A stretch of 64,000 nucleotides of DNA from Bacilli bacterium (GCA_017513865.1 JAFWMN010000032.1:16678-80677); one strand, 5' to 3'. Shown: positions 22,914 through 43,578, counted from the first letter of the stretch. Numbers and translations: made by a program. Notes: generated by a model from the sequence alone, not told the origin.

Positions 22914-22914
22914 G

Positions 22915-27543: not shown

Positions 27544-27783
27544 ACAAATAATATGAAAATAATGAAATAATTATATACAATTAAATATATTGAACGTGAA
27601 AAATATATTCGTATAATATTGTATGATGAGTCATTTTTACAAAGAATGACTCTTTTTTTATTTCCAATTTTTTCAAACAAACTATTGACTAAACATGCAA
27701 TATTTATTAGAATAAATAACAAATTTTTACTATGAGAGAGTTTTCCTAGACTATCATTAAGCTATGAATGTCTCTCACAAATA

Positions 27784-27846
27784 TTGTATGTAGTATGTTG
27801 TATGTTGTATGTTGTAAGTTGTATGTTGTAAGTTGTAAGTTGTAAT
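27784..27846. repeat. Heptanucleotide tandem repeat (TTGTAWG), about 9 units, immediately upstream of the 27871 ORF
   Basis: ttgtatg tagtatg ttgtatg ttgtatg ttgtaag ttgtatg ttgtaag ttgtaag ttgtaat, read directly. Confidence 0.8.
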
Positions 27847-27870
27847 TTTAGAAAGGTTAGGCGAATCTAA

Positions 27871-28407
27871 ATGGAAGATATACTTACATTAGATAAAATA
27901 TTTAGTTTGCCAAATACGATATTACATAATTCAGAATTGTTAAATGAATATACAAAAATGCTTGATGAAGATTATTATAATAAGTTTAATATTGCTGAGA
28001 TTAAATTAGATTTGGATCAGTTCTTCAAGAAATTTAATAATCTTAAATATACATATAGATATAATATTTCGACTGGTAATAAAGTAATTTCAAATTATGA
28101 TTTTGGCTCTGTAATTAATTCGTATATAAAAAGTGATAAAACAGCAGTATTGGCATGTAATATTATTGATAGTACTGCATTATTAAATGAGATATCTAAT
28201 GCAATGATTAACTTGTCTAATAAATTAACAATTGAAGAAGCAGTCTATTTCGTAAATGAATTTTTTGGGAATCTTTCTGAAACTAAAATTGCTGACAATT
28301 TAAGGATATGCAGAAATACTTTACAAAAAATTAAGAAAAGTTGTTTGGTAAAAACATGGTTTGAATTAAAACCTTATTTAGATGAATTAGAAAAATTAAA
28401 TGAGTGA
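27871..28407 (+). CDS. Hypothetical protein (178 aa)
   Basis: ORF with a GAAAGG RBS, followed by a hairpin and T-run. Confidence 0.4.
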   Translation: MEDILTLDKIFSLPNTILHNSELLNEYTKMLDEDYYNKFNIAEIKLDLDQFFKKFNNLKYTYRYNISTGNKVISNYDFGSVINSYIKSDKTAVLACNIIDSTALLNEISNAMINLSNKLTIEEAVYFVNEFFGNLSETKIADNLRICRNTLQKIKKSCLVKTWFELKPYLDELEKLNE

Positions 28408-28503
28408 CTTAGCACTCTTTTTTTTTGAAAAAATTGGAAGTAAGTAAAAACAGAAAATCAGTGGTGACTGTCTATGCGTACTTTACAATTAAAAATATAT
28501 CAT

Positions 28504-28540
28504 AGAGAAGAATTATATATAATGTTCTTCTCTTTTTTTT
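28504..28540 (+). terminator. Rho-independent terminator (AGAGAAGAA N12 TTCTTCTCT followed by T8)
   Basis: 9-bp stem read from the sequence. Confidence 0.45.
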
Positions 28541-28610
28541 ATGGTTTCATTAACTCTCGTGCTCCTCCTTATAAAGCAAAAATTTTAACAAAAAAAATAG
28601 GAGGTAAAAT

Positions 28611-29078
28611 ATGAATGCAAATCCAAAAAGAAGAAAATATAGAGATAATCCTTATACATTAATGAATAATGAAGATGAATTTTGTATATTATTTATTGAT
28701 TCATCTAATAATGTTCAGATAATAGAGGTCCCAGAATTTGTTTATGATACTTTCAATCTTTTCGAACTTGAAGATCTTTCTCAAATGAATGAATATGATA
28801 GACACATCGAACATATGAGTTTTGATGACATTTCCTTTAGTAAAATTACAAATAAACAAAAAAGTTTAGAAGATGAAGTAATCAATAAAATTTTATGTGA
28901 CACTCTAAAAAAAGAAATATCGAAATTACCAGAAATACAGAAACGTAGACTTGTTATGTATTTTTTTAATGATATGAAATTAAAAGATATAGCACTTCTT
29001 GAAAATTGTTCCCCTAGAGCTGTAAAGTCAAGTATAGATATCTCTATTTCAAAATTAAAAAAAATATTAAAATATTAA
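28611..29078 (+). CDS. Sigma-70 region-4-like regulator (Tn916 Orf7-like / small sigma-like factor), copy A
   Basis: C-terminal PEIQKRRLVMYFFNDMKLKDIALLENCSPRAVKSSIDISISKLKK matches the region-4 HTH. Paralog of the 41859..42317 gene. Confidence 0.55.
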   Translation: MNANPKRRKYRDNPYTLMNNEDEFCILFIDSSNNVQIIEVPEFVYDTFNLFELEDLSQMNEYDRHIEHMSFDDISFSKITNKQKSLEDEVINKILCDTLKKEISKLPEIQKRRLVMYFFNDMKLKDIALLENCSPRAVKSSIDISISKLKKILKY

Positions 29079-29109
29079 AAATTAGACTTCAAAAAATAAG
29101 TATAAGTGA

Positions 29110-29158
29110 GGAATATAATGAAGGAGTTTTTTCTCTTTCATTATATTCCATTTTTTTA
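29110..29158 (+). terminator. Strong Rho-independent terminator (13-bp stem GGAATATAATGAA/TTCATTATATTCC followed by T7)
   Basis: Read directly from the sequence. Confidence 0.6.
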
Positions 29159-29167
29159 TGGAATTAA

Positions 29168-29379
29168 TGTTCTTTGAAAATTTAGTAAAAATAATCAAAT
29201 ACGTTCTTATTACTTTGAGCACATTAACAAGTACGCTTGCGAATAATACTTGGTTATAAATATTAATTTGCTTTTAATAATGCGATGACAAGAAATAAGT
29301 ATAATGATACTTCTACCCAGCCACAGACTCAACCAATGGGGGTAGTCCTGAATAGATCCAGGAAAGTGAAAATCTTATG
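29168..29379 (+). repeat. 212-bp conserved leader repeat, copy A (about 88% identical to 42389..42600). Contains TATAAT, a CTACCC...GGGTAG hairpin, an RBS and an ATG.
   Basis: Direct repeat found by eye. Both copies lie just downstream of a sigma-like gene and its terminator. Confidence 0.85.
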
Positions 29380-31344
29380 GAATTGATTAGCAATCAATCA
29401 TTTGATTATTACGTGAAACAAATTTTAATAATAAATTTAAAAAGAAAGGTTGTGGAAAAAATGAATTTAGATAATTTAAAATTATCAGGAGTCGGAGAAA
29501 TTCATTTAACAGATTCACTTAATGCATCATTGCTAAAGTTAAATGTTAAACTAAATTCTTCATCCGTGGCTCCAAACAGTAATGATTTGTTCATATATGT
29601 TGATAAAGCAGACATGAACAATCAAACAGATGAAAGAAAAGAATATTTATTTGATTTATCAAACCCATTAAAACAACTAAATGGAGTTAGTGATGAATTT
29701 AAATTAACAATTGAATTTGAAGAAAATGAAGCAATATTAAAAGCTTCCGTAAAAAGAATGATTGGAGTATCTGAAGAAATAGATTATGTATTAGATAGTC
29801 CTGTAATTGAAGAAATTGAAAGTTTTCCAATAACATTATTTGAAGGTGAAAACTATATTTATACAAATTATACAGGAGCAGTTATTGATTTAATGTATCC
29901 AAAAGATACAGAAGTAAATAGAATGTTTTTAAACAATGCTATTTATTACGGTCATAAATTAAAAAAAGATGGTGAATTTACTTTAGATGATATTTATTTC
30001 AAAGATGCATTTACAAAAACAGAAGACAAACTAAACTTAGAAGTGAATAATGCTAACATTGACTGTTTAACTTCTAGAAATAATAAATTTAGTTTAGACA
30101 GTGAAGGTAATTTAATAGTTAATAGTATTACTTCAAAAATACAGACTAATATTGCAGGAGAAGTTACCCTAGACGGTGAAGCATCAAAAATAGAGATTAC
30201 AAATCTAGATGCTTTAAATGACGGCGGTGTATATGAATTTATCGCTATTGGATATACCAATTCTACTACTCAAACAGATATTAGTGTTAAAATTAATGAC
30301 CAAACTTCAGGATATCATCATTGCTATATGAATGCTCAAGGTAATCGAGATAATAGTGGTGGTTTATCTACTAATTTCAATTATGTTCAGGACAGTGATG
30401 ATATAAATGAATTTTTACAAACAAATGGGTCAATTAATTCTTATCCAGTAGTTGTAGAAGGAAGACTATATATTTCGGAAAATTCTTCTAATCAAAAGAG
30501 AGTTAATTATAGTTTAAGACATTATAGAAGTGTTGCATCAGGACAGTCAATTTGTCTATTAGGTGGTGTATTTTCTCAATCATTTGAAAATATTAATTCA
30601 TTAAGTATTTCTTTAACTAACAGTTCAATTAAATTTTCTAAAGGCTCTAGACTAGTCGTATTTAATCCATTAAAGGGGGCAAAAGGTGACCAAGGGGAAA
30701 CTGGCGCTACAGGTCCTTCAAATTCAATAACTATTGGTACAGTAGTAGCGGGAAATGAAGCTAGTGCTACACTTACTGGTGAAAGTCCAAATCAGGTACT
30801 TAATCTTGTATTGCCAAGAGGTGAACAAGGAGAAGCCGGAGGAACAATGACGGTTTCTGAAGTTGAAAATTTAATTACCCAAAGACTTGGTACTTTATAT
30901 CCTGTGGGAAGTATTTATATGTCAGTAGTTGCAACGAATCCAAGTACGTTATTTGGTGGAACTTGGGAACAGCTTAAAGATAGATTTTTACTTGGCGCTG
31001 GAGATATTTATGAAAATGGTGCTACAGGTGGTAGTGCTGAATTACAAGCCCATTTTCATGGTATACCTTCTTTAAGTGGAACAGCTCAAAGTAATGGTGA
31101 TCATTCCCATGTCACATCAAGAAGAACTTCTACATATGGCTCAGGCATGCAGTCAAATTGGAGATGTATTACAGCCCCAGCATCAGCTAATGGAGATTAT
31201 ACTCAGATAAGTAATACTGAAAATGCAGGAGCTCACACACATACAGTAACAACTAATGCAAGCACTACAGAAAGCACAGGTAATGGTACAGCAGGAAATA
31301 TGCCACCATATTTAGCAGTCTATATGTGGAAACGTATTTCATAG
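29377..31344 (+). CDS. Phage tail-fibre-like protein with collagen-like G-X-Y repeats and a C-terminal tail-collar-type domain
   Basis: GAKGDQGETGATGPS...RGEQGEAGG collagen triplets. C-terminal PVGSIYMS...LFGGTWEQLKDRFLLGAG pattern of the phage tail-collar/fibre domain, then His-rich motifs. Confidence 0.6.
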   Translation: MELISNQSFDYYVKQILIINLKRKVVEKMNLDNLKLSGVGEIHLTDSLNASLLKLNVKLNSSSVAPNSNDLFIYVDKADMNNQTDERKEYLFDLSNPLKQLNGVSDEFKLTIEFEENEAILKASVKRMIGVSEEIDYVLDSPVIEEIESFPITLFEGENYIYTNYTGAVIDLMYPKDTEVNRMFLNNAIYYGHKLKKDGEFTLDDIYFKDAFTKTEDKLNLEVNNANIDCLTSRNNKFSLDSEGNLIVNSITSKIQTNIAGEVTLDGEASKIEITNLDALNDGGVYEFIAIGYTNSTTQTDISVKINDQTSGYHHCYMNAQGNRDNSGGLSTNFNYVQDSDDINEFLQTNGSINSYPVVVEGRLYISENSSNQKRVNYSLRHYRSVASGQSICLLGGVFSQSFENINSLSISLTNSSIKFSKGSRLVVFNPLKGAKGDQGETGATGPSNSITIGTVVAGNEASATLTGESPNQVLNLVLPRGEQGEAGGTMTVSEVENLITQRLGTLYPVGSIYMSVVATNPSTLFGGTWEQLKDRFLLGAGDIYENGATGGSAELQAHFHGIPSLSGTAQSNGDHSHVTSRRTSTYGSGMQSNWRCITAPASANGDYTQISNTENAGAHTHTVTTNASTTESTGNGTAGNMPPYLAVYMWKRIS

Positions 31345-31366
31345 TATTAGTGAAAAAGGTGATAAA

Positions 31367-34300
31367 ATGAATAATAATAAGTTTAACAGATTAAATAATA
31401 ATAGAAAACTGTCAAAAGAAGAAATTATGGCAAAAGTTAAAAAGGATTTAGAACCTGATAAAGGTATTGAAATTATATCTAAACGTGGAAAAAGGGAAAA
31501 GCATTTTTTGCAAAAAGATGGTACTATTGTTGCGAAAATATATTCTGACGACATTCATTTTCAAAAAAATAACAAATATGAAGAAATAGATAATACTTTG
31601 ATAAAAGAAGGAAAATATTATAGAAATAAAAATAATTCTTTTAAAGTATATTTTAAAAATAATAGTAAAGAAGATTTTCTTATTTATGAAATTGATGGTA
31701 GCAATTTGATTTTTAACATAACAGATGTTAATGATACTCAGGCAATTATTAGTGATACTGATACTAAATATGTTAAGAAAATTACATATAAAAACATATA
31801 TGAAGAAATAGATTTTGAATATTTGATAACCCCTACAAAAGTAAAAGAAAATATAATTATTAAAAATAAAGAATCATTAAAAAACGATATTAAGTTCATT
31901 TTGAAAACTGAATTATATTTAAAATATAATTCTGAAAAAAGTATAAGCGCAATAAAAAACGGTAAAGTATTGTTCAATTTAGAAGCACCATATATAATCG
32001 ATGCGAATGGCGATATTATCGATAATGTATCATATAAACTAAACAGTTTAGATAATGGATATGAACTATCTTTCATAATAAATAAGGATAAATTATCAGA
32101 TAATAATATTAATTATCCTATTATTATAGACCCAACCATCTCAACATATAGTGATGGCGAAGTTTATGATACATATATATACCCAGGAGATGCATCTGAT
32201 AATTGCAATAGTCATGATGTCTTAAAAGCTTGTGTTGAAAAGGTTAATGGGCAAAATAGAATTAATAGAAGTTTAATAAAATTTGACTTACCTACAATTG
32301 GAACCGGAAGTCAAATCTGCGAAGCAAGATTAAATTTGGTTGGTTATCCTTTATCTGATAATTGGTATGTTGGAAATAATGATAATAATTATATTGATGT
32401 ACATAGGATTACAGAAGATTGGAATGAAAGCAATGCAAAATGGAATAATATGAATGATAAATATGATCATAAAATAATAGACTCATCATATTTTGTTAAA
32501 GGTACAATAACATTTGAAGATACAGATTACACGTATACTGGATATTCTTCCTTCAATATCACTTCATTAGTTCAGAGTTGGTATACTGATAGTCAGAATT
32601 ATGGTGTTTTGCTTAAACAACATAATGAAACATATAATAGCAATTGTGAATTAGCTAAGTTTTATTCAAAAAATAATAATATTAGTGGCGATAACCCAAA
32701 ACCAACTTTAATTATAGTGTATAGAAATCAGAATGGTTTAGAATCATATATGAATTACCAATCACAAGCAATTACTAATGGTATGGTTTATCAGAATACG
32801 TTTAATGGAAATCTTATAGCAATGCTTCAAGTAGCACAGACAATTGGAAGTTATTTGCCTGTTAATTTAAACATTGTTTATAATACAAATGATGTTATTC
32901 TAAATAATAATAGAGGCTTAGGAATTGGGTTTAAATTCACATTATGGCAGACAATAAAAGAAGTCACCATCTCTGGAATTAATTATTTAGAATATTTAGA
33001 TGAAGATGGAACATTACATTATTTTATTAACGAAGATGGTGTATATAAAGATGAAGATAATTTGGAACTTTCTATAGAAAAAAATACTAGTTACTATTTA
33101 TTAACCGATAGATTTGGTAATAAAATGACATTTACAATAGTAAATAGTATAGGATATCTGACAAAGTATCAGGACACATCCAACAATACTATAACGATTA
33201 ATTATGATTCTTCCAATAGAATAATAGAAGTTGTTGACAGCAATAATAAAAATATAATAATTAATTATGATAATGATTTAGTTAGGGTAATAAGTGCTAA
33301 TAATACTGTATGCTTGAATTATTTATCTAATAAATTAGTTTCAGTTTCATATGATTCTGATATTATATCTTTTTCTTATAATGACAATAATTGTATATCA
33401 GAAATAATAAACACAGATGGTTTAAAACTACAATATGAATATTATGAAAAAACACCACATAAGATTAAAAAAGTAAAAGAATATGGGCTGAACAATGAAG
33501 AAGGGTCTTACTTTAGATTTGATTATGGACACAATATTACAAAAATTACTGATAATAAAAATAGAGTAACAACTATAAGTTTTAATGACTCAGGATTAGA
33601 AGTATGTACAAGTGATTTAAAGAATGAAAATGGAGTGTCGAATGCATATTCTATTTTTAACAAATATGGTGAAGATGATATATATAAAAATAAGTTAATA
33701 ACCGGTGGTATCCCAACAAAATATGTAAAGAACTATTTAAAGAACACAGGATTCGAAAATAACGAATTGTTTTTTGTTAAGAGCGATAATTTATTTGATT
33801 TATCATTAACTGAAGAACATGCTTATAATGGGAATAGAAGTTTAAAACTGTCAACAGAATTAAATGATAAAAATATAAGCTACTCGATTTCTGTTCCTAA
33901 AGGGAAATACTATACTTTTAGTTGCTATATTAAGAATAATGCCAAAGTAAAAATTGGATTATCCTACATAGATAGTAATAATAATAGCATTTCGAATAAT
34001 TCTGAATATATCATGCCATCTCAAAGATTTGAGCGAAATGAAGTTTCTATTTTTTATCCAAATGATTCTTTAAGTAATATATCTATAAATATATATCAGG
34101 AATTTGCAGGAATTACTTATATAGATAATATTCAGCTTGAAGAAGGCCAAATTGCAAACAAATTTAATTATATTGAAAATTCTGATTTTTCAGATGGTTT
34201 AACAGGATGGGATTTGTCTTCTGGTGATAATGATAACTCTAGATTTAGTATAGTAGCACTAGATGATAATAGCAAAGCTTTAAAAATTAATATGGATCCT

Positions 34301-37300
34301 ATTATATATACAAGCATTTATAAAGAATTTTATATTAATGGCAAAGCAGGTGAAAAGTATACAATATCGTTTTGGTACAAGGATAACGGTAATTCAAATC
34401 CTGAAAACAATTATGTTATTATTTCACCTAATTTTGAAGAATCATTGGAAACAGATTGGCATCCAGAAGAATCATTAAATTCAAGTGCTAACATTTGGCA
34501 ATATTTTTCAAAAACTATGACTATGCCAGCATCTTTTGATAAAATTGGAATATTACTATTGCAGCATGATGTTAATGAAATGTATATAACAAATATATCA
34601 CTTTACAAAGATGAAAATGAAAGTTCTTATAATTATGACGCTAATGGAAATGTTATAGGAATATATGACTATAACAAAAAAATTGGTTCATATAATTATG
34701 ATTCAAATAATCAAATGATAGGCTCAGCAAATAAAGATGGATGTACTACTTATTATGAATATGATAATCTAATTCATGACAAAATCCATAGGAATCTTAC
34801 TGATTTTGGTATGGTTAATGAGATAATGTATGATAGCAATAATAATCCTATTGTATCAAGAACTATAAAAAAAGGATATCAAAATGATAATACTGATGGC
34901 TTATATAGTATAAGAATTAAAGGAAGTAACACTTATGTGAGAAATATTAGAAATCAAGTTGTTCTTTGTTCTAACTGTGGAATTCATGATTTGTGGAATG
35001 TTAGAAAATATAATGATGATTTTTATACAATTAGCCATTCAATTCTACTAAATAAATTTTTTACTGTCACAAATAATAAATTGACTTTGTGTGATTTTAA
35101 TGAACAAAAATCTTTATTCAAACTAACAAGAAATAAAAATGGTAGTTTTTCAATACAGGATTATAATAATAAATACTTAAAGGTTGATAATAATTTATTA
35201 ATATTGTCAGACTATTCACAAAATGATAGTAATTTTGAGTTTTACTTAGAAAATAGTGTTGGAAAGCAATTTATTGAAGGGAATACTAAATATAATAACA
35301 ATGGAAAATATATTGAAGAGACAATAGATAGCGGCTTATTTACTAGAAAGTATGTTATAGATGAAAATACTGGACATATTGAAAAAATAACTTCATCAGA
35401 TGGAAATGTTACTATTTATGAATATGATGAAGATGAAAAAATTAGTAAAGCAATAAACTTTGACAGAAAAATTATTTATAATTATAACGACAACAAGTGC
35501 TTAAAAGAAATAGTAGTTGGAAATAAAGTTTATAAGTTTATATATGATGACTTCTTAAATATTTCTGAAGTTTTATTAAATAATAATTATTCATTGATAA
35601 AAAGTAATTATGAAAATAATAATGGGGTAGTTTTATCTACAAAATATGGAAATAATGATTTAACATATTATACTTATGATGAGTTTGATAGGTTAAAAAC
35701 TATTACTAGAGGAGACGATGTATATACTTTTATTTACAACAATAATGGTCATTTAGTGAGAATAGTATCGAATAATCATGAAGAAAGATTTATTTATAAT
35801 GAAAATGGTAAATTAGACAGATATGAGTTTGACAATTTTAAGATAAAGTATTCAGAGTCAGATGATGGTATAAGTCACTTTAATGAGTTTGTAATAATAG
35901 AAGGAGAGAATAGTCATTCTGAGCAGATGAATTTTCAATATGTGAATAATAATATTGGGTGCTTAAATTTTGATAATAACAATATTCAATATAGTTATGA
36001 TGAAATAGGAAGATTGATTAAATCTAATATTAATAACAGCATTGATGTTACAATAGAATATTTAAGAAATGGAAATCGCATGACTTCATTAGTTAAAAAA
36101 TACAAATATTACAATAATACATATTTATATAAATATAATAAATCCGGTTTTATTACTCATGAATATATAAATGGAAAACTGAATCACAAATATTACTATA
36201 ATCACTATAATGAATTAATAAAAGAAGATGATTATAAGTTAAGTCAAACAATAAAGTATAATTATGATTTGTATGGAAATTTACTAGAAAAGCGAATTTA
36301 TAAAATTAACAGTTTTGAATTATTAGATCAGATAAAGTATGAATATAATACTAATTGGGAAGATCAATTAGTTGAATTTAACGGAGAAGAAATATTATAT
36401 GACGCAAGTGGAAATGTAACAAATATTAATAATAGAGTTACTTTAACGTGGTCAAATGGTAAGCAATTAGATAAATATCAAGATAATGAGGGTAATATAA
36501 TTATGTATAATTATTCTCATGATGGACTGAGAATAGGAAAAAACATAAATGGAAATGAAATAAAGTATTATTTAGATGGTCATAATATTATATTTGAAAA
36601 AGATGGATTAAATATGATATACTATATACGTGATAACAAGGGTAATCTTTTAGGATTTAAATATAATAATGATTTATATTATTATGTTAAAAATGTTCAA
36701 GAAGATATAATTGGAATTTTAAATTCTAACTATCAGTGCGTTGCAAAATATAGCTATGATAGCTGGGGTAATATTGTTTCAATTACTGATTCTAATGATA
36801 ATGATATTAGTCAGATTAATAATCATATTGCTAACATAAACCCTTTCAGATATCGTAGCTACTATTATGATAAAGAGACATCTCTTTATTATTTAAATAG
36901 TCGTTATTATAATCCTAAATGGGGAAGATTTATAAGTGCTGATGGAATTATAGGAGTTTCAGATTTTATGGGATTCAACTTATATCAATATGCTTTTAAT
37001 AATCCGATAAATTATTCAGATTCAGATGGACATTTTAGTGTACTAGCCGCTATTGTTGGTGGTGTTGTAATAGCAGGAGCATATTCTCTTATTAAAAAAG
37101 CAACTAATTCTAGTAGCAAAAAATCAAACAAGAAGAGTTCATCATCAAAAAACAAAAATAATAAAAAAAATAGTTCCAGTGTATCATCAGCAAGTTCAGT
37201 AGCAAGTGCAGGTGCTCAAAGAGCCTCTAGTAGTCTATCATCTTTAGCAGTTACTTGTACGTATAAAACTCCAAAGAAATATCATTATGAAGATGCAATT

Positions 37301-37765
37301 AAGCAAGCAGAATGCTTTGTTAAGGCTTATGGCATAACTAAAGAAACACATTATAGTCGTAATGATAACTATAATAAACTGCCACTAACTCATCAGAAAG
37401 AGGCGTTTAAATATCATTTTGTTCCAATGCAAAATTCTAGTTGTCATAATATAGGAACAAAAGGTAATACTAAGTATGTTGGACCTATAGAAACAATAGT
37501 TGTAAATGGAAAAGTTATTACAATTCAAAAGGAAGTCGTTTTTGATCCAAGAGGATTTATAGTTACTGATCCTAATAATTATGGAACAGCTAATTTTGCA
37601 CCAAGAATTGAGGGAATAGAAGACAAGGAACTACAAAAAGAAAATCACGATAGACATTATGCTTATGATGTAGCTGCATGGATTTTATGGGGTAATAGTG
37701 AAGATGATACAACATCTATTGAGCAGAGAATAAATGCATATCATAAGTGGAAACCAAAAAAATAA
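31367..37765 (+). CDS. Rhs/YD-repeat polymorphic toxin (2132 aa) with tandem CBM-like domains, an inserted ricin-B-like beta-trefoil, an Rhs core, a TM helix plus Ser/Lys linker, and a variable C-terminal toxin domain
   Basis: Many YD repeats (YDxxGN, YxYDxxxR). Core end motif RYRSYYYDKETSLYYLNSRYYNPKWGRFISADGI. No signal peptide or LXG domain. Confidence 0.85.
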   Translation: MNNNKFNRLNNNRKLSKEEIMAKVKKDLEPDKGIEIISKRGKREKHFLQKDGTIVAKIYSDDIHFQKNNKYEEIDNTLIKEGKYYRNKNNSFKVYFKNNSKEDFLIYEIDGSNLIFNITDVNDTQAIISDTDTKYVKKITYKNIYEEIDFEYLITPTKVKENIIIKNKESLKNDIKFILKTELYLKYNSEKSISAIKNGKVLFNLEAPYIIDANGDIIDNVSYKLNSLDNGYELSFIINKDKLSDNNINYPIIIDPTISTYSDGEVYDTYIYPGDASDNCNSHDVLKACVEKVNGQNRINRSLIKFDLPTIGTGSQICEARLNLVGYPLSDNWYVGNNDNNYIDVHRITEDWNESNAKWNNMNDKYDHKIIDSSYFVKGTITFEDTDYTYTGYSSFNITSLVQSWYTDSQNYGVLLKQHNETYNSNCELAKFYSKNNNISGDNPKPTLIIVYRNQNGLESYMNYQSQAITNGMVYQNTFNGNLIAMLQVAQTIGSYLPVNLNIVYNTNDVILNNNRGLGIGFKFTLWQTIKEVTISGINYLEYLDEDGTLHYFINEDGVYKDEDNLELSIEKNTSYYLLTDRFGNKMTFTIVNSIGYLTKYQDTSNNTITINYDSSNRIIEVVDSNNKNIIINYDNDLVRVISANNTVCLNYLSNKLVSVSYDSDIISFSYNDNNCISEIINTDGLKLQYEYYEKTPHKIKKVKEYGLNNEEGSYFRFDYGHNITKITDNKNRVTTISFNDSGLEVCTSDLKNENGVSNAYSIFNKYGEDDIYKNKLITGGIPTKYVKNYLKNTGFENNELFFVKSDNLFDLSLTEEHAYNGNRSLKLSTELNDKNISYSISVPKGKYYTFSCYIKNNAKVKIGLSYIDSNNNSISNNSEYIMPSQRFERNEVSIFYPNDSLSNISINIYQEFAGITYIDNIQLEEGQIANKFNYIENSDFSDGLTGWDLSSGDNDNSRFSIVALDDNSKALKINMDPIIYTSIYKEFYINGKAGEKYTISFWYKDNGNSNPENNYVIISPNFEESLETDWHPEESLNSSANIWQYFSKTMTMPASFDKIGILLLQHDVNEMYITNISLYKDENESSYNYDANGNVIGIYDYNKKIGSYNYDSNNQMIGSANKDGCTTYYEYDNLIHDKIHRNLTDFGMVNEIMYDSNNNPIVSRTIKKGYQNDNTDGLYSIRIKGSNTYVRNIRNQVVLCSNCGIHDLWNVRKYNDDFYTISHSILLNKFFTVTNNKLTLCDFNEQKSLFKLTRNKNGSFSIQDYNNKYLKVDNNLLILSDYSQNDSNFEFYLENSVGKQFIEGNTKYNNNGKYIEETIDSGLFTRKYVIDENTGHIEKITSSDGNVTIYEYDEDEKISKAINFDRKIIYNYNDNKCLKEIVVGNKVYKFIYDDFLNISEVLLNNNYSLIKSNYENNNGVVLSTKYGNNDLTYYTYDEFDRLKTITRGDDVYTFIYNNNGHLVRIVSNNHEERFIYNENGKLDRYEFDNFKIKYSESDDGISHFNEFVIIEGENSHSEQMNFQYVNNNIGCLNFDNNNIQYSYDEIGRLIKSNINNSIDVTIEYLRNGNRMTSLVKKYKYYNNTYLYKYNKSGFITHEYINGKLNHKYYYNHYNELIKEDDYKLSQTIKYNYDLYGNLLEKRIYKINSFELLDQIKYEYNTNWEDQLVEFNGEEILYDASGNVTNINNRVTLTWSNGKQLDKYQDNEGNIIMYNYSHDGLRIGKNINGNEIKYYLDGHNIIFEKDGLNMIYYIRDNKGNLLGFKYNNDLYYYVKNVQEDIIGILNSNYQCVAKYSYDSWGNIVSITDSNDNDISQINNHIANINPFRYRSYYYDKETSLYYLNSRYYNPKWGRFISADGIIGVSDFMGFNLYQYAFNNPINYSDSDGHFSVLAAIVGGVVIAGAYSLIKKATNSSSKKSNKKSSSSKNKNNKKNSSSVSSASSVASAGAQRASSSLSSLAVTCTYKTPKKYHYEDAIKQAECFVKAYGITKETHYSRNDNYNKLPLTHQKEAFKYHFVPMQNSSCHNIGTKGNTKYVGPIETIVVNGKVITIQKEVVFDPRGFIVTDPNNYGTANFAPRIEGIEDKELQKENHDRHYAYDVAAWILWGNSEDDTTSIEQRINAYHKWKPKK

Positions 37766-37785
37766 ATAGTTGAGGGGAGATAAAT

Positions 37786-38571
37786 ATGAAGAGAATATTA
37801 GGAATTATAATAATTTGCGTAATAATTATAATTACTTGTATTATTTCAATTTTTCGTACATTAAATAGTATGCATTTTAAGTATATCGAGAGGGGCGTAA
37901 AAATTGTTAATAGTAATATTTATCGTTTAAACCTTGCTATAGAAGATGAAAATGAACAAGAAATAAAAAAAATGATAAAAACGATTAATCTTAATAAGTT
38001 ACCATTTTTTTATGAACGAAATGTTATTGAAGAAACCAAGGAACAATACATGAATATTTCCCCATTATCTACCGCCTGCTGGATGGGAAATTATAAAATA
38101 GTTCAGATGTTAATTGAAAATGGTGCAGACGTTAATTATAGAGGGAATTCTTATAATTATTATCCGATTGAACATGCATTAATATATTATGGTATGACAG
38201 AAGATAGATATAAAATTGCAAAGCTATTAATAGAAAAAGGCTCAAAAATAAATGTACGAAGTAGTAATCAAAATTTGTTAGTTTCCTTTTTAATGGCTAA
38301 TTATATTGATAATGATGAATTAAATTCTAAACAAGCTAGATTATGTTTGAAAACAATAAAACTACTTATTAATAAATATAACTATAGTACTGATGAATTA
38401 AATGCCATTTTAGTTGCATCGGTTAAAAGTAATAATTTTATTGTTGCAAAATATCTGATAGAAAATTCTATGCTTTATGATAATAATCAACTTAAATTAA
38501 AAGAATTGTTATTAGAAATTGCAAAGTCCAATGAAAACAAGTCAATGATTGAGTACTTACAAAGTAAATAG
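37786..38571 (+). CDS. Ankyrin-repeat protein, putative immunity protein for the Rhs C-terminal toxin
   Basis: Ankyrin-like repeats (SPLSTACWMGNYKIVQMLIENGADVN...). Immediately downstream of the toxin gene in the canonical toxin/immunity arrangement. Confidence 0.6.
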   Translation: MKRILGIIIICVIIIITCIISIFRTLNSMHFKYIERGVKIVNSNIYRLNLAIEDENEQEIKKMIKTINLNKLPFFYERNVIEETKEQYMNISPLSTACWMGNYKIVQMLIENGADVNYRGNSYNYYPIEHALIYYGMTEDRYKIAKLLIEKGSKINVRSSNQNLLVSFLMANYIDNDELNSKQARLCLKTIKLLINKYNYSTDELNAILVASVKSNNFIVAKYLIENSMLYDNNQLKLKELLLEIAKSNENKSMIEYLQSK

Positions 38572-38695
38572 TTTATTTTTCTTATATTATTTAAAATAGT
38601 TTTATTAGTTAGTACATAATTGATTTTGTCAACTATAATTTAGTTGAATTTAATTACTTTATGTATTTCTAATTAATAAGGAAGGATGGCGAAAA

Positions 38696-39553
38696 TTGAG
38701 TGATATACTCAACATGCATATGACATTGGAAAGTAAAAAAATGAGCAATTACTATAAAAAATTTAAAAGTGGTAAAATAAGTATTGAAGAATTTGAAAAA
38801 GCGAAAAAAGAAGGTTATTTATTTGATTTTCCTACATATCTTGAACACGATGATATACTAAAGCAAATTAAATATTTTGTAAGTCAAATATCAAAAAAAG
38901 ATGTAGCTAATGCATTTCTCTATAGTTTAACAACAAGAAGACTTGAATATAGATCAATTTTAGGTTCATATTGGTATGCCGTAGCTTTATTTCCACACAA
39001 AAAACATAATCGTTATGGAACTGATGGATTTTGCGATATATGTGATTGGATGGATATGCCAAAAGATACACCTGAAAATGAAAAAAAATGGTATCATTAC
39101 AAATATAATATTTATAATTATGATAGATATAGAGTTGGGGGCATTGTACATACAAATGTCAATTATGTAATGTTTGATTTGCGTGAATTTCTAAAAATGC
39201 CAAAAGTTGAGCCAACACAAAAAGACAAAGAAATACTTTTGAAAACACTTCATCTTATTGATGATTTGAAATTAAATAACAAAGCTGGAACATATAGAGA
39301 TTACATTGTGAAAAATAAATTGTTCCCTACTAATAAAAATGAAATCGCTCAATTTTTAAATATACTAGGTGTCTGTGGAGTTTTATCAAGCGATATGTAT
39401 CCATGTTATGATGAATATTATGTTCCTGCGGATGGTTCTAGAGACCCAATTGAGTATTTAAATGATTTTCGCTATCCATTGAATAGATGGAAAGTAGCTG
39501 ATGGTATCAATAAAAAACGCTTTAAAAAAGTATTTGGTTTTGAATATAGATAA
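38696..39553 (+). CDS. Hypothetical protein (285 aa), possibly an orphan immunity or accessory protein
   Basis: ORF with a TTG start. Position in the polymorphic-toxin locus only. Confidence 0.35.
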   Translation: MSDILNMHMTLESKKMSNYYKKFKSGKISIEEFEKAKKEGYLFDFPTYLEHDDILKQIKYFVSQISKKDVANAFLYSLTTRRLEYRSILGSYWYAVALFPHKKHNRYGTDGFCDICDWMDMPKDTPENEKKWYHYKYNIYNYDRYRVGGIVHTNVNYVMFDLREFLKMPKVEPTQKDKEILLKTLHLIDDLKLNNKAGTYRDYIVKNKLFPTNKNEIAQFLNILGVCGVLSSDMYPCYDEYYVPADGSRDPIEYLNDFRYPLNRWKVADGINKKRFKKVFGFEYR

Positions 39554-39723
39554 TATTAAGCAAGATATTGAATATAGTCTCATCAATTTGTTTTCTTCAT
39601 TTACACTAAAAAGATAACTAATATTTGCAAAAGGAATATTATTATAAAACACACAAAATAGCAAAAAATTAAAGAATCTTTGATATTTATTCAAAGATTC
39701 TTTAATATTTATGAAAGGAAATT

Positions 39724-40026
39724 ATGATAGAAATAGTATTAAATTGGTTTATACCTTTTATTTTAACTGCTATATTTGGATATATAGCAAAAGAACTTAA
39801 AGAAAATAAAAAACATGATGAAGCCATGCGTAACAGCATGGTTTTATTATTACGTAGTCAAATAACAGGAAAATGCGAAAATTATTTAAGAATGGGTTTT
39901 CTACCAGATTATGCAAGGAGTTGCTTAGAAGATTTATATAAGCAATATGAATCTTTAGGAGGAAATCATGGAGTAAATAAATTGGTTGATCAAACTTTTA
40001 ACCTAAAACCATTAAAGGAGGATTGA
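39724..40026 (+). CDS. Small protein with an N-terminal TM helix (100 aa)
   Basis: ORF with a GAAAGGAAA RBS. Upstream of the holin/endolysin pair. Confidence 0.35.
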   Translation: MIEIVLNWFIPFILTAIFGYIAKELKENKKHDEAMRNSMVLLLRSQITGKCENYLRMGFLPDYARSCLEDLYKQYESLGGNHGVNKLVDQTFNLKPLKED

Positions 40027-40030
40027 TACT

Positions 40031-40282
40031 ATGGAAATTTATTATATGTCTATTGTTGCAATGATGACTTTTGTCTTTGGTGCAATAAACAAAGCATATT
40101 TTGAAAGTATGCCAAATAGATTTATACCAATTCAAAATGTTTTTATTGGATTAATATCAGGAATTATTTGTTATTTCGGTCATTTAGAAAGTGATTTGTT
40201 AGAATCTATTGTTTTATGCATAATGGCAGCTATGAGTTCAGGAGGAGTTGCCGATATGAAGGATATTGTTAAACGTGATTAA
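40031..40282 (+). CDS. Putative holin (83 aa, 2-3 TM helices)
   Basis: AAAGGAGG RBS, hydrophobic helices and a charged C-terminus. Overlaps the start of the GH25 lysin gene. Confidence 0.5.
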   Translation: MEIYYMSIVAMMTFVFGAINKAYFESMPNRFIPIQNVFIGLISGIICYFGHLESDLLESIVLCIMAAMSSGGVADMKDIVKRD

Positions 40283-41294
40283 AAAAGGTATAGATGTATC
40301 TAAATGGCAAGGGATTATAGACTGGAATAAAGTTAAAAATAGTGGTATTGAATTTGCTATTATAAGAATTGGCTTTGGTAAATTTATTAACCAAAAAGAC
40401 ACCTGTTTTGAAAGAAATTATAGAGAAGCTAGAAATAGTGGTATACCTATAGGTGTATATCATTATAGCTATGCTACTTCTGTAGAAGAGGCAAAAGAAG
40501 AAGCAAAATGTGTTGTAAGATGGTTAAATGGCAGAAAACTAGATTTACCTGTTTATTTCGATATAGAAGATAAATCTCAGAGTTCGTTAAATAAAAATAT
40601 ATTAAATTCTATGTGTGAAGCTTTTTGCAATATTATTGAAAAAGCTGGTTATTGGGCCGGAATATATTCAAACAAATATTGGGCCACATCAATTATTGAT
40701 GGTGCAAAATTAGGTAGTAGATATACGTATTGGATTGCACAATATAATAATGAATGCACTTATAAAGGAAATTATGATATATGGCAATATAGCTCCTCTG
40801 GTAGTGTAGATGGAATAATAGGAAATGTAGATATGAATTATATGAATAGAGATTTAATTTCAGAAATCAACAATCCTAACGACAAATCTAATATAGAAAA
40901 TAATAACAAAGAGAACAATATACTTGATTTAAGCAATTATAATGGAAAATCAATTGTAGATGGATTAAAAAGTATAGGGGTAGATAGTTCTTTTGAAAAC
41001 AGAAGTATTATATATAGAAATATGGGGTTTATTGATGAATATATTGGAAGTAGTATTCAAAATATAAATCTTCTAAATAGACTAAAACATAAATCTATAA
41101 ATACTTTCTATCCTAAATATAATGGAAATAGTGATTCTATAGTAGATGCCTTAAAGTCATTAAATGTTGATAGTTCTATAAATAATAGAAAAATAATAGC
41201 AAAAATTAATAACATCGATAATTATACGGGAAGTGCTATTCAAAATATACAATTACTAAGATTATTAAAAAATGGCCAATTAAAGAAAAAATAA
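40266..41294 (+). CDS. GH25 muramidase (endolysin-like, no signal peptide) with two about 45-aa C-terminal putative cell-wall-binding repeats
   Basis: Start KKGIDVSKWQGIIDWNKVKNSGIEFAIIRIGFG is the GH25 signature. Internal repeats LKSIGVDSS.../LKSLNVDSS.... Confidence 0.8.
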   Translation: MLNVIKKGIDVSKWQGIIDWNKVKNSGIEFAIIRIGFGKFINQKDTCFERNYREARNSGIPIGVYHYSYATSVEEAKEEAKCVVRWLNGRKLDLPVYFDIEDKSQSSLNKNILNSMCEAFCNIIEKAGYWAGIYSNKYWATSIIDGAKLGSRYTYWIAQYNNECTYKGNYDIWQYSSSGSVDGIIGNVDMNYMNRDLISEINNPNDKSNIENNNKENNILDLSNYNGKSIVDGLKSIGVDSSFENRSIIYRNMGFIDEYIGSSIQNINLLNRLKHKSINTFYPKYNGNSDSIVDALKSLNVDSSINNRKIIAKINNIDNYTGSAIQNIQLLRLLKNGQLKKK

Positions 41295-41858
41295 AAGTAT
41301 ATAATAATTTTAATACGCTTTTTTCGATATAAATATTAAATTAAATAATATAATAACAAAAATCATTTTTTATAAAGTAAATTATTTCTTATATTCTGTA
41401 AATAATTAGATATATTATTCGCTTTATTTTATAGACTATTATAAAATTATTGGTAACTATATGTTATATATATTTCTTTCAGACAAAAAAGTACACCATT
41501 CGGAACACTTATATAAAAAAAAGAGAATATTGAATATAATAAAGGCCATCAGCAATTACAAGGGTATGTTAAAGGACTATTGTAATGAAGAAAAAGGGGA
41601 TTTATCCTTTTTCATCGGCGAATCTAACATATACTTTGTATAATGTTCCGTTCATTGTAATTGCAATAGGTGGTTACTATGAACGAAAAATGTTATTTGT
41701 TATGCTGTTTGCTATGTGATAACTCAAGAAGTTTGTCTTCTAGGGCTGTGTCTTTTACTCATTTTAAGAGTAGGAGATGCAGCCCTCTTTTTTTGTGCTC
41801 TTTTTTAGTTAGAGGACCACCTATCCTTTCAATTAAAAAAATTGAAAGGAGTTACGAG

Positions 41859-42317
41859 GTGGATAAAAGACCAATAAGAAGAAAGTATAGAGATAATCCT
41901 TATTTACTAGAAAGCATTAAAGAAAAGAATATATATATTATTAAATTTAATGATATAAATGGAAAACATGAAGTAGTAGTAGACAAGGATATTTTTGATT
42001 TATTTGATAAAAATGAGAAATATGAAAACGCTAGATATTTTGAATATTCTAAACATTTATTTCATAATGAAATTAACTATTCGCAAATTAAATCTAATTA
42101 TTCTTTAGAAGATGAGGTTATAAATAATCTATCTCTTAAAGAATTAAAGTACACTATTGAAATGCTGCCTGATATTCAGAAAAGAAGAATTAAAAAATAT
42201 TATTTTGAAGAGAAAACTTTAGAAGAAATTGCTATGGAAGAAGGCTGTTCAAAAGTTGCAATTAAGTATTCTATTGATAGTGCATTGAGAAAAATATCAA
42301 AAATTTTCAAAATATGA
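41859..42317 (+). CDS. Sigma-70 region-4-like regulator, copy B (GTG start)
   Basis: Paralog of 28611..29078 (RRKYRDNPY...LPDIQKRRIKKYYFEEKTLEEIAMEEGCSKVAIKYSIDSALRKI). AAAGGAG RBS before GTG at 41859. The ORF-track start at 41670 gives an implausible Cys-rich extension. Confidence 0.55.
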   Translation: MDKRPIRRKYRDNPYLLESIKEKNIYIIKFNDINGKHEVVVDKDIFDLFDKNEKYENARYFEYSKHLFHNEINYSQIKSNYSLEDEVINNLSLKELKYTIEMLPDIQKRRIKKYYFEEKTLEEIAMEEGCSKVAIKYSIDSALRKISKIFKI

Positions 42318-42346
42318 CTTAACTTTTTCACGATTTCGCTACTAAA

Positions 42347-42382
42347 GGGTGAGAGTGTAAAAAACTTCTCACCCTATTTTTT
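42347..42382 (+). terminator. Rho-independent terminator (GGGTGAGAG N11 TCTCACCC followed by a T-run)
   Basis: Read directly from the sequence. Confidence 0.55.
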
Positions 42383-42388
42383 AGGTTT

Positions 42389-42600
42389 TGTTCTTTGAAA
42401 ATTTAGTGTCATTTATCAAATACGTTCTTATTACTTTGAGCACATTAACAAGTACGCTTGCGAATAATACTTGGTTATAAAAATAAAGTGGCTCTTTATT
42501 ATGTAATGACGAGTAATAAGTATAATGATACTTCTACCCAGCCACAGACTCAACCAATGGGGGTAGTCCTGAATAGAAACAGGAAAGTGAAATTCTTATG
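42389..42600 (+). repeat. 212-bp conserved leader repeat, copy B. Its ATG opens only a 3-codon ORF (ATG AAA CTG TAA).
   Basis: Paralog of 29168..29379. Confidence 0.85.
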
Positions 42601-42729
42601 AAACTGTAAAGCCGGCAGTTGTTTGATAAATCCCAACTGAGGGAATGAGAAATATATCAGATATGATTAAGTAAAAAATATCCAAGACTTTTTGTCTTGG
42701 TTTATACATATGAAAGGTTAGTGAAAAAA

Positions 42730-42921
42730 ATGAAAGAATATCAAATAGATTTAAAATTAATTTTATCTAGCAAATTTTTACAAAGTGGGAAAAATAAGAA
42801 GGAAATAAGAGATAAAGTTACTAATGTCATAATAGAAGCTTTAAAAAATGATAAGACTTTAAAAATATTATTTAATAATGAAATTCCTGTATATATAATG
42901 GATATAAGTGAAAATGAATAG
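42730..42921 (+). CDS. Candidate antitoxin (63 aa) overlapping the MazF-like gene
   Basis: Small ORF whose stop overlaps the start of the toxin gene. Shows no recognisable antitoxin fold. Confidence 0.3.
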   Translation: MKEYQIDLKLILSSKFLQSGKNKKEIRDKVTNVIIEALKNDKTLKILFNNEIPVYIMDISENE

Positions 42922-43276
42922 AAGAGAAATTAGAAGAGGAGATATTTATACAGCAATTTTAGAATTGGGAATTGGCTCTGAACAAACTGGGATTAGACCT
43001 GTACTTATCATTCAAAATAATGTAGGAAATATATATAGTAATACAACTATAATCGCACCTATTTCATCATCATATACAAAACATGATATTCCAACTCATG
43101 TTTTTTTAAATAATAAAGATTACTTATATAACAGTTCAATTATTTTATTAGAACAAATACGAGTAATATCTAAAAATAGATTAGGTCACTACATAGCACA
43201 TCTAAGCGATAAAAAAATGAAAGATGTTGACAATGCAATATTAAAGTCATTGGGAATAAAAAAAAACAAAATTTAA
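42908..43276 (+). CDS. PemK/MazF-family mRNA interferase toxin
   Basis: RRGDIYTAILELGIGSEQTGIRPVLIIQNNVGNIYSNTTIIAPISS is characteristic of the MazF/PemK family. Confidence 0.65.
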   Translation: MKMNRREIRRGDIYTAILELGIGSEQTGIRPVLIIQNNVGNIYSNTTIIAPISSSYTKHDIPTHVFLNNKDYLYNSSIILLEQIRVISKNRLGHYIAHLSDKKMKDVDNAILKSLGIKKNKI

Positions 43277-43359
43277 AAATATGAGGAGGCAGAGCATTAT
43301 AGAAAAATGTAATTTTTATAAAATAAATAACATAGAATTGGAAGTAGGGAGGAATATTT

Positions 43360-43578
43360 ATGTATAAAACAATAGAGTTTTACGATAATAATGGCTGTGA
43401 CTTAAAAGAGGTACTAAAAAGTTGTATATATAAATATTACATTGAAAATAAAAATTTACTAATAAACAAAAAAAGCAAACTTGAAACGGACGAGAAAAGT
43501 AGTATAATAAAAGCGACTAATAAAGTGAAAAAGTTGTCTAATGAAAGGAGTAAGAAATGTACCCTAAGTACAAATTAG
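43360..43578 (+). CDS. Small protein (72 aa) directly upstream of and overlapping the serine recombinase gene. Candidate recombination directionality factor.
   Basis: Strong RBS GGGAGG. Position only. Confidence 0.3.
   Translation: MYKTIEFYDNNGCDLKEVLKSCIYKYYIENKNLLINKKSKLETDEKSSIIKATNKVKKLSNERSKKCTLSTN

Follow-up and report, generated by a model that had tools for sequence, protein, structure and literature searches.

How does a very large Rhs toxin that has no signal peptide leave a Gram-positive cell, and where does it act once it has reached its target? The passage through the cell wall of such very large proteins (>300 kDa) was left unexplained in a study of Streptococcus suis WapA (PMC12704120), and a holin route is not listed in a comprehensive catalogue of toxin trafficking modes (PMC3482391). 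Both questions are raised here by a stretch of 64,000 nucleotides from a Bacilli bacterium (GCA_017513865.1, JAFWMN010000032.1:16678-80677; the whole stretch is hereafter called the window), in which the gene of an Rhs/YD-repeat protein is followed, after a gap of 20 nt, by that of an ankyrin-repeat protein (Table 1). We hold with moderate confidence that the locus is an Rhs toxin/immunity pair which would serve interbacterial competition, set in a phage-derived expression-and-release cassette that is carried by an integrative conjugative element (ICE) inserted in the sporulation gene spoIVA.

The Rhs protein is an Rhs polymorphic toxin by every feature tested, as the first-pass annotation of the window had proposed. 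Searches with Pfam and NCBIfam models detect the repeats of the shell (RHS_repeat, PF05593, E 6.8e-16; YD repeats as YD_repeat_2x and TIGR01643, E 4.6e-15; an RHS_core model over aa 1306-1643) and the Rhs-associated core, in which RYYNPKWGRF (aa 1846-1855) and the cleavage-type motif PINYSDSDGH (aa 1880-1889) can be read from the sequence. The autoproteolysis motif of the PxxxxDPxG type is present as the variant NNPINYSDSDGH, which keeps both Asp positions, and cleavage itself is predicted. More than 100 homologues of about 2050 residues are 42-49% identical to the protein over its first ~1890 residues (87-92% of the query), and their C-termini vary, belonging to PF15607, PF15654, PF15649, PF14412, PF07486 or to nothing known, so that a conserved body with differing C-termini is found together with the shell repeats, the core with its motif and a downstream partner gene. 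Besides these different families, orphan Rhs C-terminal fragments were found in homologous loci: locus L107 holds two of them (12135..13121 and 14251..15246, 329 and 332 aa), and in L092 the downstream 214-aa gene is duplicated (13042..13683 and 14501..15142). These extra modules are typical displaced toxin/immunity pieces of polymorphic loci.

With the same models no LXG, PAAR or signal-type domain, no LysM or CWB wall-binding repeats and no SpvB or TcA match were found in the Rhs protein, and its N-terminus is hydrophilic, which bears out the early description of a protein without signal peptide, LXG or PAAR domain. PAAR/VgrG-binding and LXG/WXG domains and genes of type VI and type VII secretion systems (T6SS, T7SS) were likewise not found in the Rhs protein or among the annotated open reading frames (ORFs) of the window. 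The protein is not a member of the WapA-type, T6SS, T7SS or Tc groups.

The body of the protein carries, in addition to the repeats, a DNRLRE domain, preceded on its N-terminal side by a weak DUF7948 match (PF25778, E 9.4e-6, aa 42-257), two stretches of carbohydrate-binding modules (CBMs), within which a weak GTA_spike_fiber match lies (aa 838-930), and a probable beta-trefoil. The CBM pair had been noticed from the start and is supported by PF02018; it had also been called unusual, which it is not, as the CBM region and the trefoil block are both kept in the consensus of the Rhs family. The ricin-B-like trefoil that had been placed among the YD repeats is backed by weak matches, to Fascin (E 0.006, ~aa 1231-1301) and to RicinB_lectin_2 (E 0.31; both Pfam). 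After the core, the predicted cleaved fragment opens with a hydrophobic helix, FSVLAAIVGGVVIAGAYSLI, that resembles a transmembrane (TM) segment (mean Kyte-Doolittle hydropathy 2.21 over 17 residues), and continues with a Ser/Lys-rich linker, similar linkers being found in the relatives P0002, P0004 and P0006. Helix and linker are thus where they had been described, the helix however being a family-wide trait and not particular to this toxin: among the 66 homologues with a placeable motif, the segment following it is TM-like in 24 and Lys-rich amphipathic in 27.

The C-terminal toxin domain (CT domain) had been described as a domain of roughly 200 aa with no recognised motif. Its size comes out smaller (~155 aa), and no matching model was found in Pfam (even at E 5), NCBIfam or PHROG. 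An exhaustive HMMER search of 1.84 billion representatives returned 109 relatives at E<=1e-3, and in nearly all of them the domain (~140 aa) forms the extreme C-terminus, on proteins whose other domains include Rhs repeats (5), DUF7211 (5), DUF637/CdiA-like regions (2), Phage_Mu_F (2), LXG (1) and SpvB (1), as well as LysM or SLH. Because of this terminal position and of the variety of delivery partners, the CT domain is, on sequence grounds, a widespread polymorphic-toxin domain family for which databases have no model. A word-index protein search with a 179-aa CT query missed even the identical P0001, and its negative outcome is uninformative. Genomic loci were located with a degenerate DNA pattern for H-x3-D-[VI]-x-P-W-x2-W-G-N, which gave 68 loci, the domain HMM confirming nearly all of them, in Lachnospiraceae, Ruminococcaceae, Oscillospiraceae, Paenibacillus, Mollicutes-like metagenome-assembled genomes, Patescibacteria and Rhodobacterales, and further in gut Azospirillum, Treponema, Verrucomicrobia, Bacteroidota, Chloroflexota and Cyanobacteria.

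The family is marked by the motifs HYxRN, (C)H(Q/N)F, NxKYVSPDG, E.IYD..G.LVTDP.D.GTYN, HFxxDVxPWIxWGNSxxDxTT and R, and seven positions are invariant in the family alignment (A2), all of them present here: R1998, H2027, H2097, D2101, N2110, D2114 and R2121. This His/His/Asp/Asp/Asn/Arg/Arg set suggests an enzyme, possibly a metal-dependent one. No nuclease, deaminase or ADP-ribosyltransferase (ART) motif or fold was found in the CT domain, and PAP2, HKD/PLD, M23/LAS, colicin M, TelC and ART, considered as kin by motif, were rejected by eye, their order or spacing being unfit.

Two side observations concern the distribution of the domain. In five Rhodobacterales loci (L026, L033, L039, L043 and L045) a CT-type domain is found towards the N-terminus of long ORFs (562-2288 aa), and these copies may have a role other than that of a terminal toxin. 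Two IMG/VR contigs (L005, 3473-3968, and L006) encode stand-alone 165-aa proteins that consist almost entirely of the CT domain, directly upstream of a gene whose N-terminus is, by eye, like that of a terminase large subunit.

The structure prediction that had been recommended for the C-terminal region gave a confident fold with a weak relative only. With the family alignment as input, the AlphaFold2 model of the CT domain reaches pLDDT 93.2 and pTM 0.86 (from the single sequence pLDDT is 35, which is unusable), and the predicted fold comprises short N-terminal helices, a long beta-hairpin, a long helix bearing H-x3-D and a C-terminal helix. No match was obtained by phmmer against PDB sequences; Foldseek with the model gave none at E<=1e-3 against PDB and none significant against BFVD. 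The two top PDB matches in Foldseek are both chains of the TSR-AMOP structure of human Isthmin-1, 9c6t (E 0.05-0.1, TM 0.30-0.39), and the same entry is the top PDB match of two sequence profiles of the CT family, at borderline values (E 0.007 and 0.021). The pattern Y.D..L(V/I)T...GT.N....H...DVLPWI is common to the CT domain and 9c6t. AMOP, known from metazoan Isthmin-1, MUC4 and SUSD2, is a distinct fold of unknown function (9c6t; PMC12000326); like the modelled CT domain, it has helices around antiparallel strands, and it is extracellular, as the CT domain would be. The conserved AMOP disulfides have no counterpart in the CT family, cysteines not being conserved in alignment A2; the Pfam AMOP model matched none of 37 CT-family members, even at E 10, and the similarity scores are borderline. 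The agreement of sequence profiles and Foldseek on one entry is suggestive of kinship with AMOP and not proof of it.

The gene that follows the CT domain encodes an ankyrin-repeat protein, in which an immunity protein had been seen from its position. The same pairing recurs: the two Rhs relatives with the same CT domain (P0002 and P0004, at 39 and 37% identity) are each followed by an ankyrin gene (L001 and L004), whose product is colinear with the ankyrin protein of the window at 29-30% identity, and in 12 further, unrelated loci, all from Firmicutes or Mollicutes-like genomes and with various delivery regions, a CT-domain protein is followed by an ankyrin protein of 170-317 aa (most ~265-317). 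By position and by co-occurrence in 15 loci the ankyrin protein is the cognate immunity partner, and protection would be its role. An N-terminus of exported type, either a signal-anchor or a lipoprotein signal (e.g., LLGGC, VTSCG), is present in 14 of the 15 ankyrin partners, and in 11 of the 12 from the further loci; in other phyla the gene downstream of the CT domain often encodes a small polytopic membrane protein.

As for the site of action, exported ankyrin proteins that confer immunity have been reported for the Tli/Tle phospholipase pair of a T6SS (bioRxiv 10.1101/2023.03.28.534661) and for Bdellovibrio Bd3460, which counters DD-endopeptidases (PMC4686830). Because the ankyrin partners appear exported or anchored, because the partners in other phyla are often polytopic and because of these precedents, the data suggest that the CT domain has an extracytoplasmic target and would act on the cell envelope from outside. 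An alternative with the same delivery places the action of the CT domain in the cytoplasm of the target: the helix would drive translocation, and the ankyrin protein would be membrane-tethered, its repeats pointing into the cytoplasm. Most characterised Rhs C-termini do act in the cytoplasm, helices of the same type precede nuclease-type C-termini in the Rhs family, ankyrin repeats are usually cytoplasmic, and the charges around the TM segment of the ankyrin protein are ambiguous; moreover, Imm-ank (Zhang et al. 2012), in which ankyrin repeats likewise stand beside a polymorphic toxin, is listed with the nuclease Tox-AHH (PMC3482391). The partner described here differs from Imm-ank in its export signal and in its toxin. 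We consider cytoplasmic action unlikely, given that the lipoprotein-type signals of several ankyrin partners would put the repeats outside the membrane, that the partners in other phyla are often polytopic and that nothing of nuclease, deaminase or ART type was found in the CT domain.

The context of the gene offers an answer to the puzzle of the missing signal peptide. It was surveyed at the genomic sites of four relatives, at 80 metagenome loci (kept out of >563 related stretches, many of the 80 labelled human gut) and at 6 viral loci, all annotated by seed searches and Pfam. A recurrent order emerges, with a small sigma factor, a pemK-RNA leader, a fibre with a Gp10_C domain (199-731 aa), the Rhs gene, a variable immunity gene, a ~100-aa protein with one TM helix, a holin and a peptidoglycan hydrolase. 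Of 18 close-relative loci, 16 have the Gp10_C gene as the nearest upstream neighbour of the Rhs gene; an upstream sigma gene was identified in 8 loci, among them L001, L004, L075, L077, L079, L083 and L085. The lysins are non-orthologous across loci and fall into four types (GH25, CW_7/LysM, M23 and M15), with the architectures GH25+DUF3597 (window and L004), GH25+CW_7+LysM (L001), CW_7+LysM (L075), M23+LysM (L077) and PG_binding_1+M15 (L085), and the holin slot, too, is filled by other families in relatives (Phage_holin_6_1 in L001, Phage_holin_4_1 in L077). In L075/L076 and L077 the neighbours of the cassette are housekeeping genes (MutS, NusB, DpaA, asparagine synthase), ICE and phage genes being absent from the vicinity. 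Because the slots are kept while the gene families change, and because the cassette is also found apart from mobile elements, these comparisons suggest that the linkage is functional and under selection.

The fibre looks like a trimeric receptor-binding fibre: its C-terminal Gp10_C domain (PF21939, E 2.2e-17, aa 506-654) is accompanied by matches to PHROG tail and tail-fibre families, and its C-terminus is 40-42% identical to the 'antireceptor' of the Lactobacillus delbrueckii phages Ld3 and c5. Its true start is probably M29 (nt 29461), a later start that is backed by a 627-aa gene call in L165. The 155-aa sigma factor upstream has ECF-type (extracytoplasmic function) NCBIfam matches that are all below the model cut-offs; membership of the TcdR/BotR type is not claimed, the BotR model matching at E 0.0035, which falls well short of the score required.

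Between the sigma and fibre genes lies a pemK RNA motif, and a second one occupies the canonical place upstream of MazE/MazF at the right end of the ICE (42522-42601). Both are contained in a direct repeat of 239 nt (29168-29406 and 42389-42627, 87% identity), each copy downstream of one of two paralogous sigma genes. The order sigma, pemK RNA, Gp10_C is found in four loci (window, L001, L004 and L075), and the chromosomal cassette of L075 has the pemK RNA with no pemK/MazF gene nearby. The motif therefore seems tied to this sigma family and may be its promoter or leader, which would give the orphan 'pemK RNA' a possible function, tracking a sigma-factor family rather than pemK. Terminator-like hairpins follow the sigma gene (29110-29149) and the lysin gene (41742-41786), the latter closing the unit; from 29150 to 41742 no plus-strand terminator was predicted in the parts scanned, which leave out the interior of the Rhs gene.

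The locus is carried by an ICE and not by a prophage. Along the element the genes run in the order ParA, ParB, TED-SpaA adhesin, sortase, SSB, DUF3991-Toprim, NikA/MobC, MobA/VirD2 relaxase, coupling protein of the type IV secretion system (T4SS; 13501..15300), VirB4-like ATPase, CHAP hydrolase, regulators, the Rhs block, a second sigma factor, MazEF and a serine recombinase; the defining components comprise the relaxase (E 1.3e-39), T4SS-DNA_transf (E 8e-60), the TraG P-loop/AAA_10 ATPase, the serine recombinase and a split target gene. The 5' part of spoIVA stops at ...MVHTPW (nt 1127) and the frame picks up with YEEAIPFVEAAEIGT at 45213, the two halves covering positions 1-124 and 195-492 of the SpoIVA profile. 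A prophage had been considered on account of Gp10_C, the holin, the endolysin and a 'terminase' match; it was rejected in view of the relaxase, the coupling protein, the VirB4-like ATPase, ParAB, the sortase and the spoIVA halves. Pfam identifies the 'terminase', the sole PHROG match of this kind in the element (E 2.4e-11), as a P-loop ATPase of TraG/VirB4 type; no capsid, portal, terminase, tail-tube or tape-measure family was found among the ORFs of at least 100 aa within the element, and megablast of 27000-45000 against the INPHARED phages gave no match.

These data also bear on the possibility that phages or tail-like particles contain the Rhs protein as a structural or accessory component, associated with the tail fibre, and that fibre, holin and endolysin are the end of a prophage late operon. 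The Rhs gene does lie between a tail-fibre-like gene and the lysis genes, the usual position of a receptor-binding gene, phage receptor-binding proteins often carry CBM and lectin modules, and relatives occur on six IMG/VR contigs, as well as two upstream Gp10_C genes in L160. Nevertheless, this explanation is distinctly improbable: no particle genes were found among the ORFs of at least 100 aa in the element, which is an ICE, the cassettes of L075 and L077 stand alone among housekeeping genes, the six viral contigs compare with >563 related metagenome loci, and variable CT/immunity modules with orphan CT fragments are typical of competition toxins.

Some further observations were made on the element. 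The pieces of spoIVA lie at 765..1127 and 45213..46325, with the large serine recombinase (43557..45143) at the right end of the ICE; the arrangement resembles skin-like 'intervening elements' that are excised during sporulation, and L004 has the same junction between recombinase and spoIVA, as well as the same order of the end module. The TED/SpaA-type adhesin and sortase genes (5163..7572) recur beside the cassette in L001 (19057..21199) and probably serve as a conjugation adhesin. A 580-608-aa protein with a weak GFO_IDH_MocA NAD-binding match is encoded just upstream of the ICE-borne cassettes (25717..27543; 2223..3968 in L001; 3..1337 in L004). Beyond the ICE, strand bias and GC skew shift, with minus-strand ORFs at 49229..52288 (1019 aa), 52285..52842 and 54465..56521.

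How the toxin leaves the producing cell is the least certain major step of our reading, because some relatives have no recognisable lysis genes. A hydrophobic stretch in the first 70 residues, as expected of a signal peptide, is found in none of 119 Rhs homologues, and holin and peptidoglycan hydrolase genes are linked to this signal-less cargo, the arrangement that characterises type 10 secretion (T10SS). Because of the missing signal peptides, and because neither Sec nor T7SS, the routes known for Rhs proteins of Gram-positive bacteria, fits this family, we infer that the holin and endolysin of the cassette release the Rhs toxin in a T10SS-like manner. Export could in principle follow another path, such as an unrecognised Sec-independent signal, a T7SS or the T4SS of the ICE, in which case the lysis genes would be unrelated cargo. 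A full set of Gram-positive conjugation genes is present on the ICE (coupling protein, VirB4-like ATPase, CHAP hydrolase), and some close relatives are without recognisable holin or lysin; on the other side stand the lack of an LXG/WXG domain and of T7SS genes among the annotated ORFs of the window, the occurrence of the cassette with no ICE genes nearby, and lysis genes whose slot stays the same although they come from different families, a pattern that speaks for selection on their linkage. Taken together, such a path is very unlikely.

The mechanism that we favour, release by the lysis genes and action from outside, would run as follows. The sigma factor of the cassette would switch the operon on, probably in a fraction of the cells; the Rhs cocoon would be made in the cytoplasm, cut off its own C-terminal fragment and enclose it; and holin and endolysin would free the ~245-kDa protein by lysis or by a T10SS-like permeabilisation. 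The antireceptor-like fibre would be released along with it, possibly bound to it, and the CBM and trefoil modules, perhaps with the fibre, would bind sugars of the target wall. The C-terminal fragment would then exit the cocoon and, by its hydrophobic helix, enter the target membrane from the outer side. The catalytic domain, left on that side by the long Ser/Lys linker, would attack a component of the envelope, and sister cells would be spared thanks to the ankyrin protein displayed on the outside of their own membrane. The most far-reaching version, in which all this constitutes a new self-contained Gram-positive delivery system (a sigma factor acting through the pemK RNA leader in a subpopulation, joint release of cocoon and fibre, docking by lectin and fibre, action from outside) and the CT domain is in addition a relative of AMOP, is offered tentatively and is rather doubtful as a whole.

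Several points weigh against this mechanism. A holin and lysin were recognised in 8 of the 12 close-relative loci with enough downstream sequence, so that either lysis release is not universal or other lysis genes escaped the seed searches. A contact between fibre and Rhs protein is no more than possible, as read from the adjacency of their genes. The topology of the signal-anchor is judged by sequence, and clear lipoboxes are seen in two to three ankyrin homologues and not in the protein of the window. Relatives with nuclease-type C-termini, e.g., Tox-REase-7, have the post-cleavage helix as well; because it is family-wide and found in such members too, it may be a general device for crossing membranes rather than an anchor for this toxin.

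The remaining genes of the cassette can be assigned with less detail. The 178-aa protein at its head, possibly a regulator, has homologues that likewise head the cassette in L001 and L004, and in L159 a homologue is encoded next to the Rhs gene on its upstream side; the 100-aa TM protein is possibly a lysis accessory or a regulator. Between the ankyrin and the 100-aa genes lies the 285-aa ORF that had been suggested as a second or orphan immunity gene, a suggestion that is plausible, since it is missing from this place in L001 and L004 and has a relative in an island of immunity-type genes. No family match was found for it in Pfam, NCBIfam or PHROG, and the only two homologues found are both plasmid-borne (Niallia and Paenibacillus), the former, on NZ_CP095745 and 32% identical, lying among DUF2716, SMI1/KNR4 and DUF4304 genes, which are known immunity types. 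The gap upstream of the ORF is just 125 nt and holds no toxin fragment. The gene is probably an orphan immunity gene.

Table 1. Features of the Rhs locus and of the element that carries it; positions are counted from the first nucleotide of the window.
Feature	Position	Strand	Size or residues	Remarks
ICE inserted in spoIVA	1128..45212		~44.1 kb	Pfam matches and spoIVA halves
Head-of-cassette protein	27871..28407	+	178 aa	No Pfam match; helix-turn-helix-like C-terminus by eye
Small sigma-70-family factor	28611..29078	+	155 aa	Region 4 only (Sigma70_r4_2, E 2.2e-8)
pemK RNA motif, leader of the fibre/Rhs operon	29301..29380	+		Rfam RF02913, 43.8 bits (gathering score 34.8)
Phage receptor-binding-protein-like fibre	29377..31344	+		N-terminal region of unknown function, collagen-like GXY stretch, C-terminal Gp10_C with HxH motifs
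Rhs/YD polymorphic toxin gene	31367..37765	+	2132 aa	ATG start; no signal peptide; identical protein P0001 in public assemblies
DNRLRE domain	32165..32716	+	aa 267-450	NF033679, E 1.5e-25
Two CBM_4_9-type carbohydrate-binding modules	33728..34456	+	~aa 788-1030	PF02018, E 5.3e-13, two stretches, best ~aa 788-883
Probable beta-trefoil lectin-like module	34889..35272	+	~aa 1175-1302	Weak matches only
Rhs-associated core with autoproteolysis-type motif	36755..37033	+	aa 1797-1889	TIGR03696, E 1.3e-18; RYYNPKWGRFISAD ... NNPINYSDSDGH
Hydrophobic TM-like helix opening the predicted cleaved C-terminal fragment	37034..37093	+	aa 1890-1909	FSVLAAIVGGVVIAGAYSLI
Ser/Lys-rich low-complexity linker	37094..37300	+	aa 1910-1978	69 residues with 21 Ser and 13 Lys
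C-terminal toxin domain of unnamed family	37301..37762	+	~155 aa, aa 1979-2132	
Ankyrin-repeat immunity protein	37786..38571	+	261 aa	N-terminal signal-anchor MKRILGIIIICVIIIITCIISIF; Ank_2 E 1.5e-11, also Ank and Ank_4
Candidate orphan immunity gene	38696..39553	+	285 aa	TTG start; no TM segment
Protein with one N-terminal TM helix	39724..40026	+	100 aa	phrog_4105, E 9.3e-20; same slot in L001, L004, L075 and L083
Holin	40031..40282	+	83 aa	Three hydrophobic segments; phrog_1129 E 3.7e-5, phrog_1299 E 1.5e-4 ('holin')
Endolysin	40266..41294	+		GH25 muramidase (PF01183, E 2.2e-35) and two DUF3597-type C-terminal repeats (PF12200, E 6e-12); PHROG endolysin E 2.6e-55
ICE end module	41859..45143	+		Sigma paralogue 41859..42317, pemK RNA 42522-42601, MazE-like/MazF 42697..43276, large serine recombinase 43557..45143

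If the reading proposed here holds, the cassette, which is common, is a concrete and testable answer to how very large Rhs toxins exit Gram-positive cells, and, since it travels on an ICE that has interrupted a sporulation gene, weapon and immunity would spread horizontally. The locus would also define a widespread toxin domain that has no database model, with invariant residues that can be mutated, and a family of exported ankyrin immunity proteins. The link to AMOP, if true, would tie an enigmatic extracellular domain of animals to a bacterial toxin fold, point to a candidate conserved site in AMOP (H-x3-D, 'DVLPW') and imply a bacterial origin of AMOP. In the literature searched we found no description of the toxin domain, of the exported ankyrin partner or of the cassette architecture, and no arrangement of Rhs with a holin, a lysis cassette or T10SS in Gram-positive bacteria.

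Among known systems, a Gram-positive precedent for Rhs export is WapA, which uses Sec and has a signal peptide and wall-binding repeats (PMC12704120). WapA-type proteins (Bacillus subtilis; Streptococcus suis, PMC12704120) share with the protein described here the YD/Rhs shell, a DNRLRE domain on the N-terminal side, a core with the cleavage motif, a variable C-terminus and an adjoining immunity gene. They differ in their Sec signal peptide and LysM or CWB repeats, since none of the 119 relatives examined here has a signal peptide and wall-binding repeats were not found in this protein; unlike WapA, moreover, this Rhs family is accompanied by genes for a sigma factor, a phage fibre, a holin and an endolysin. 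The Tc toxin of Yersinia entomophaga, including its Rhs-type cocoon, is released by a holin/endolysin type 10 route from a specialised subpopulation (PMC10847048), and the Tc BC cocoon is likewise a huge signal-less Rhs-type protein beside phage-derived holin and endolysin genes (PMC10847048, PMC10847046). Tc toxins are anti-eukaryotic, have a separate TcA translocator and an SpvB/TcB N-terminal part, and belong to Gram-negative hosts with a spanin, whereas the locus described here comes from a Gram-positive host, is without SpvB and TcA, and includes an antireceptor-like fibre as well as an immunity gene, the latter of which would imply an antibacterial role; SpvB is found on one other protein that bears the same CT domain.

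Toxin or bacteriocin loci with a dedicated sigma factor and a holin are also known from clostridia, namely the PaLoc of Clostridioides difficile (TcdR/TcdE/TcdL) and the UviA/UviB-BCN5 system of Clostridium perfringens. There, too, a large signal-less toxin is encoded in one locus with a small alternative sigma factor and with genes derived from holins and endolysins; what sets the present locus apart is that its toxin is of the Rhs polymorphic kind and is paired with an immunity gene, and that its sigma factor has no more than a sub-threshold match to a model of the TcdR/BotR type. With respect to the site of action, the LXG toxin TelC acts extracellularly and is countered by TipC, a membrane-anchored extracellular immunity protein; no similarity of sequence or fold between TelC and the CT domain was found. 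The same CT domain does occur on Phage_Mu_F and LXG proteins, from which the toxin described here differs in its delivery domains. By analogy, the locus would work most like a T10SS-released Tc toxin or a lysis-released bacteriocin, from which it would be set apart by the protection of kin through immunity and by its antireceptor-like partner.

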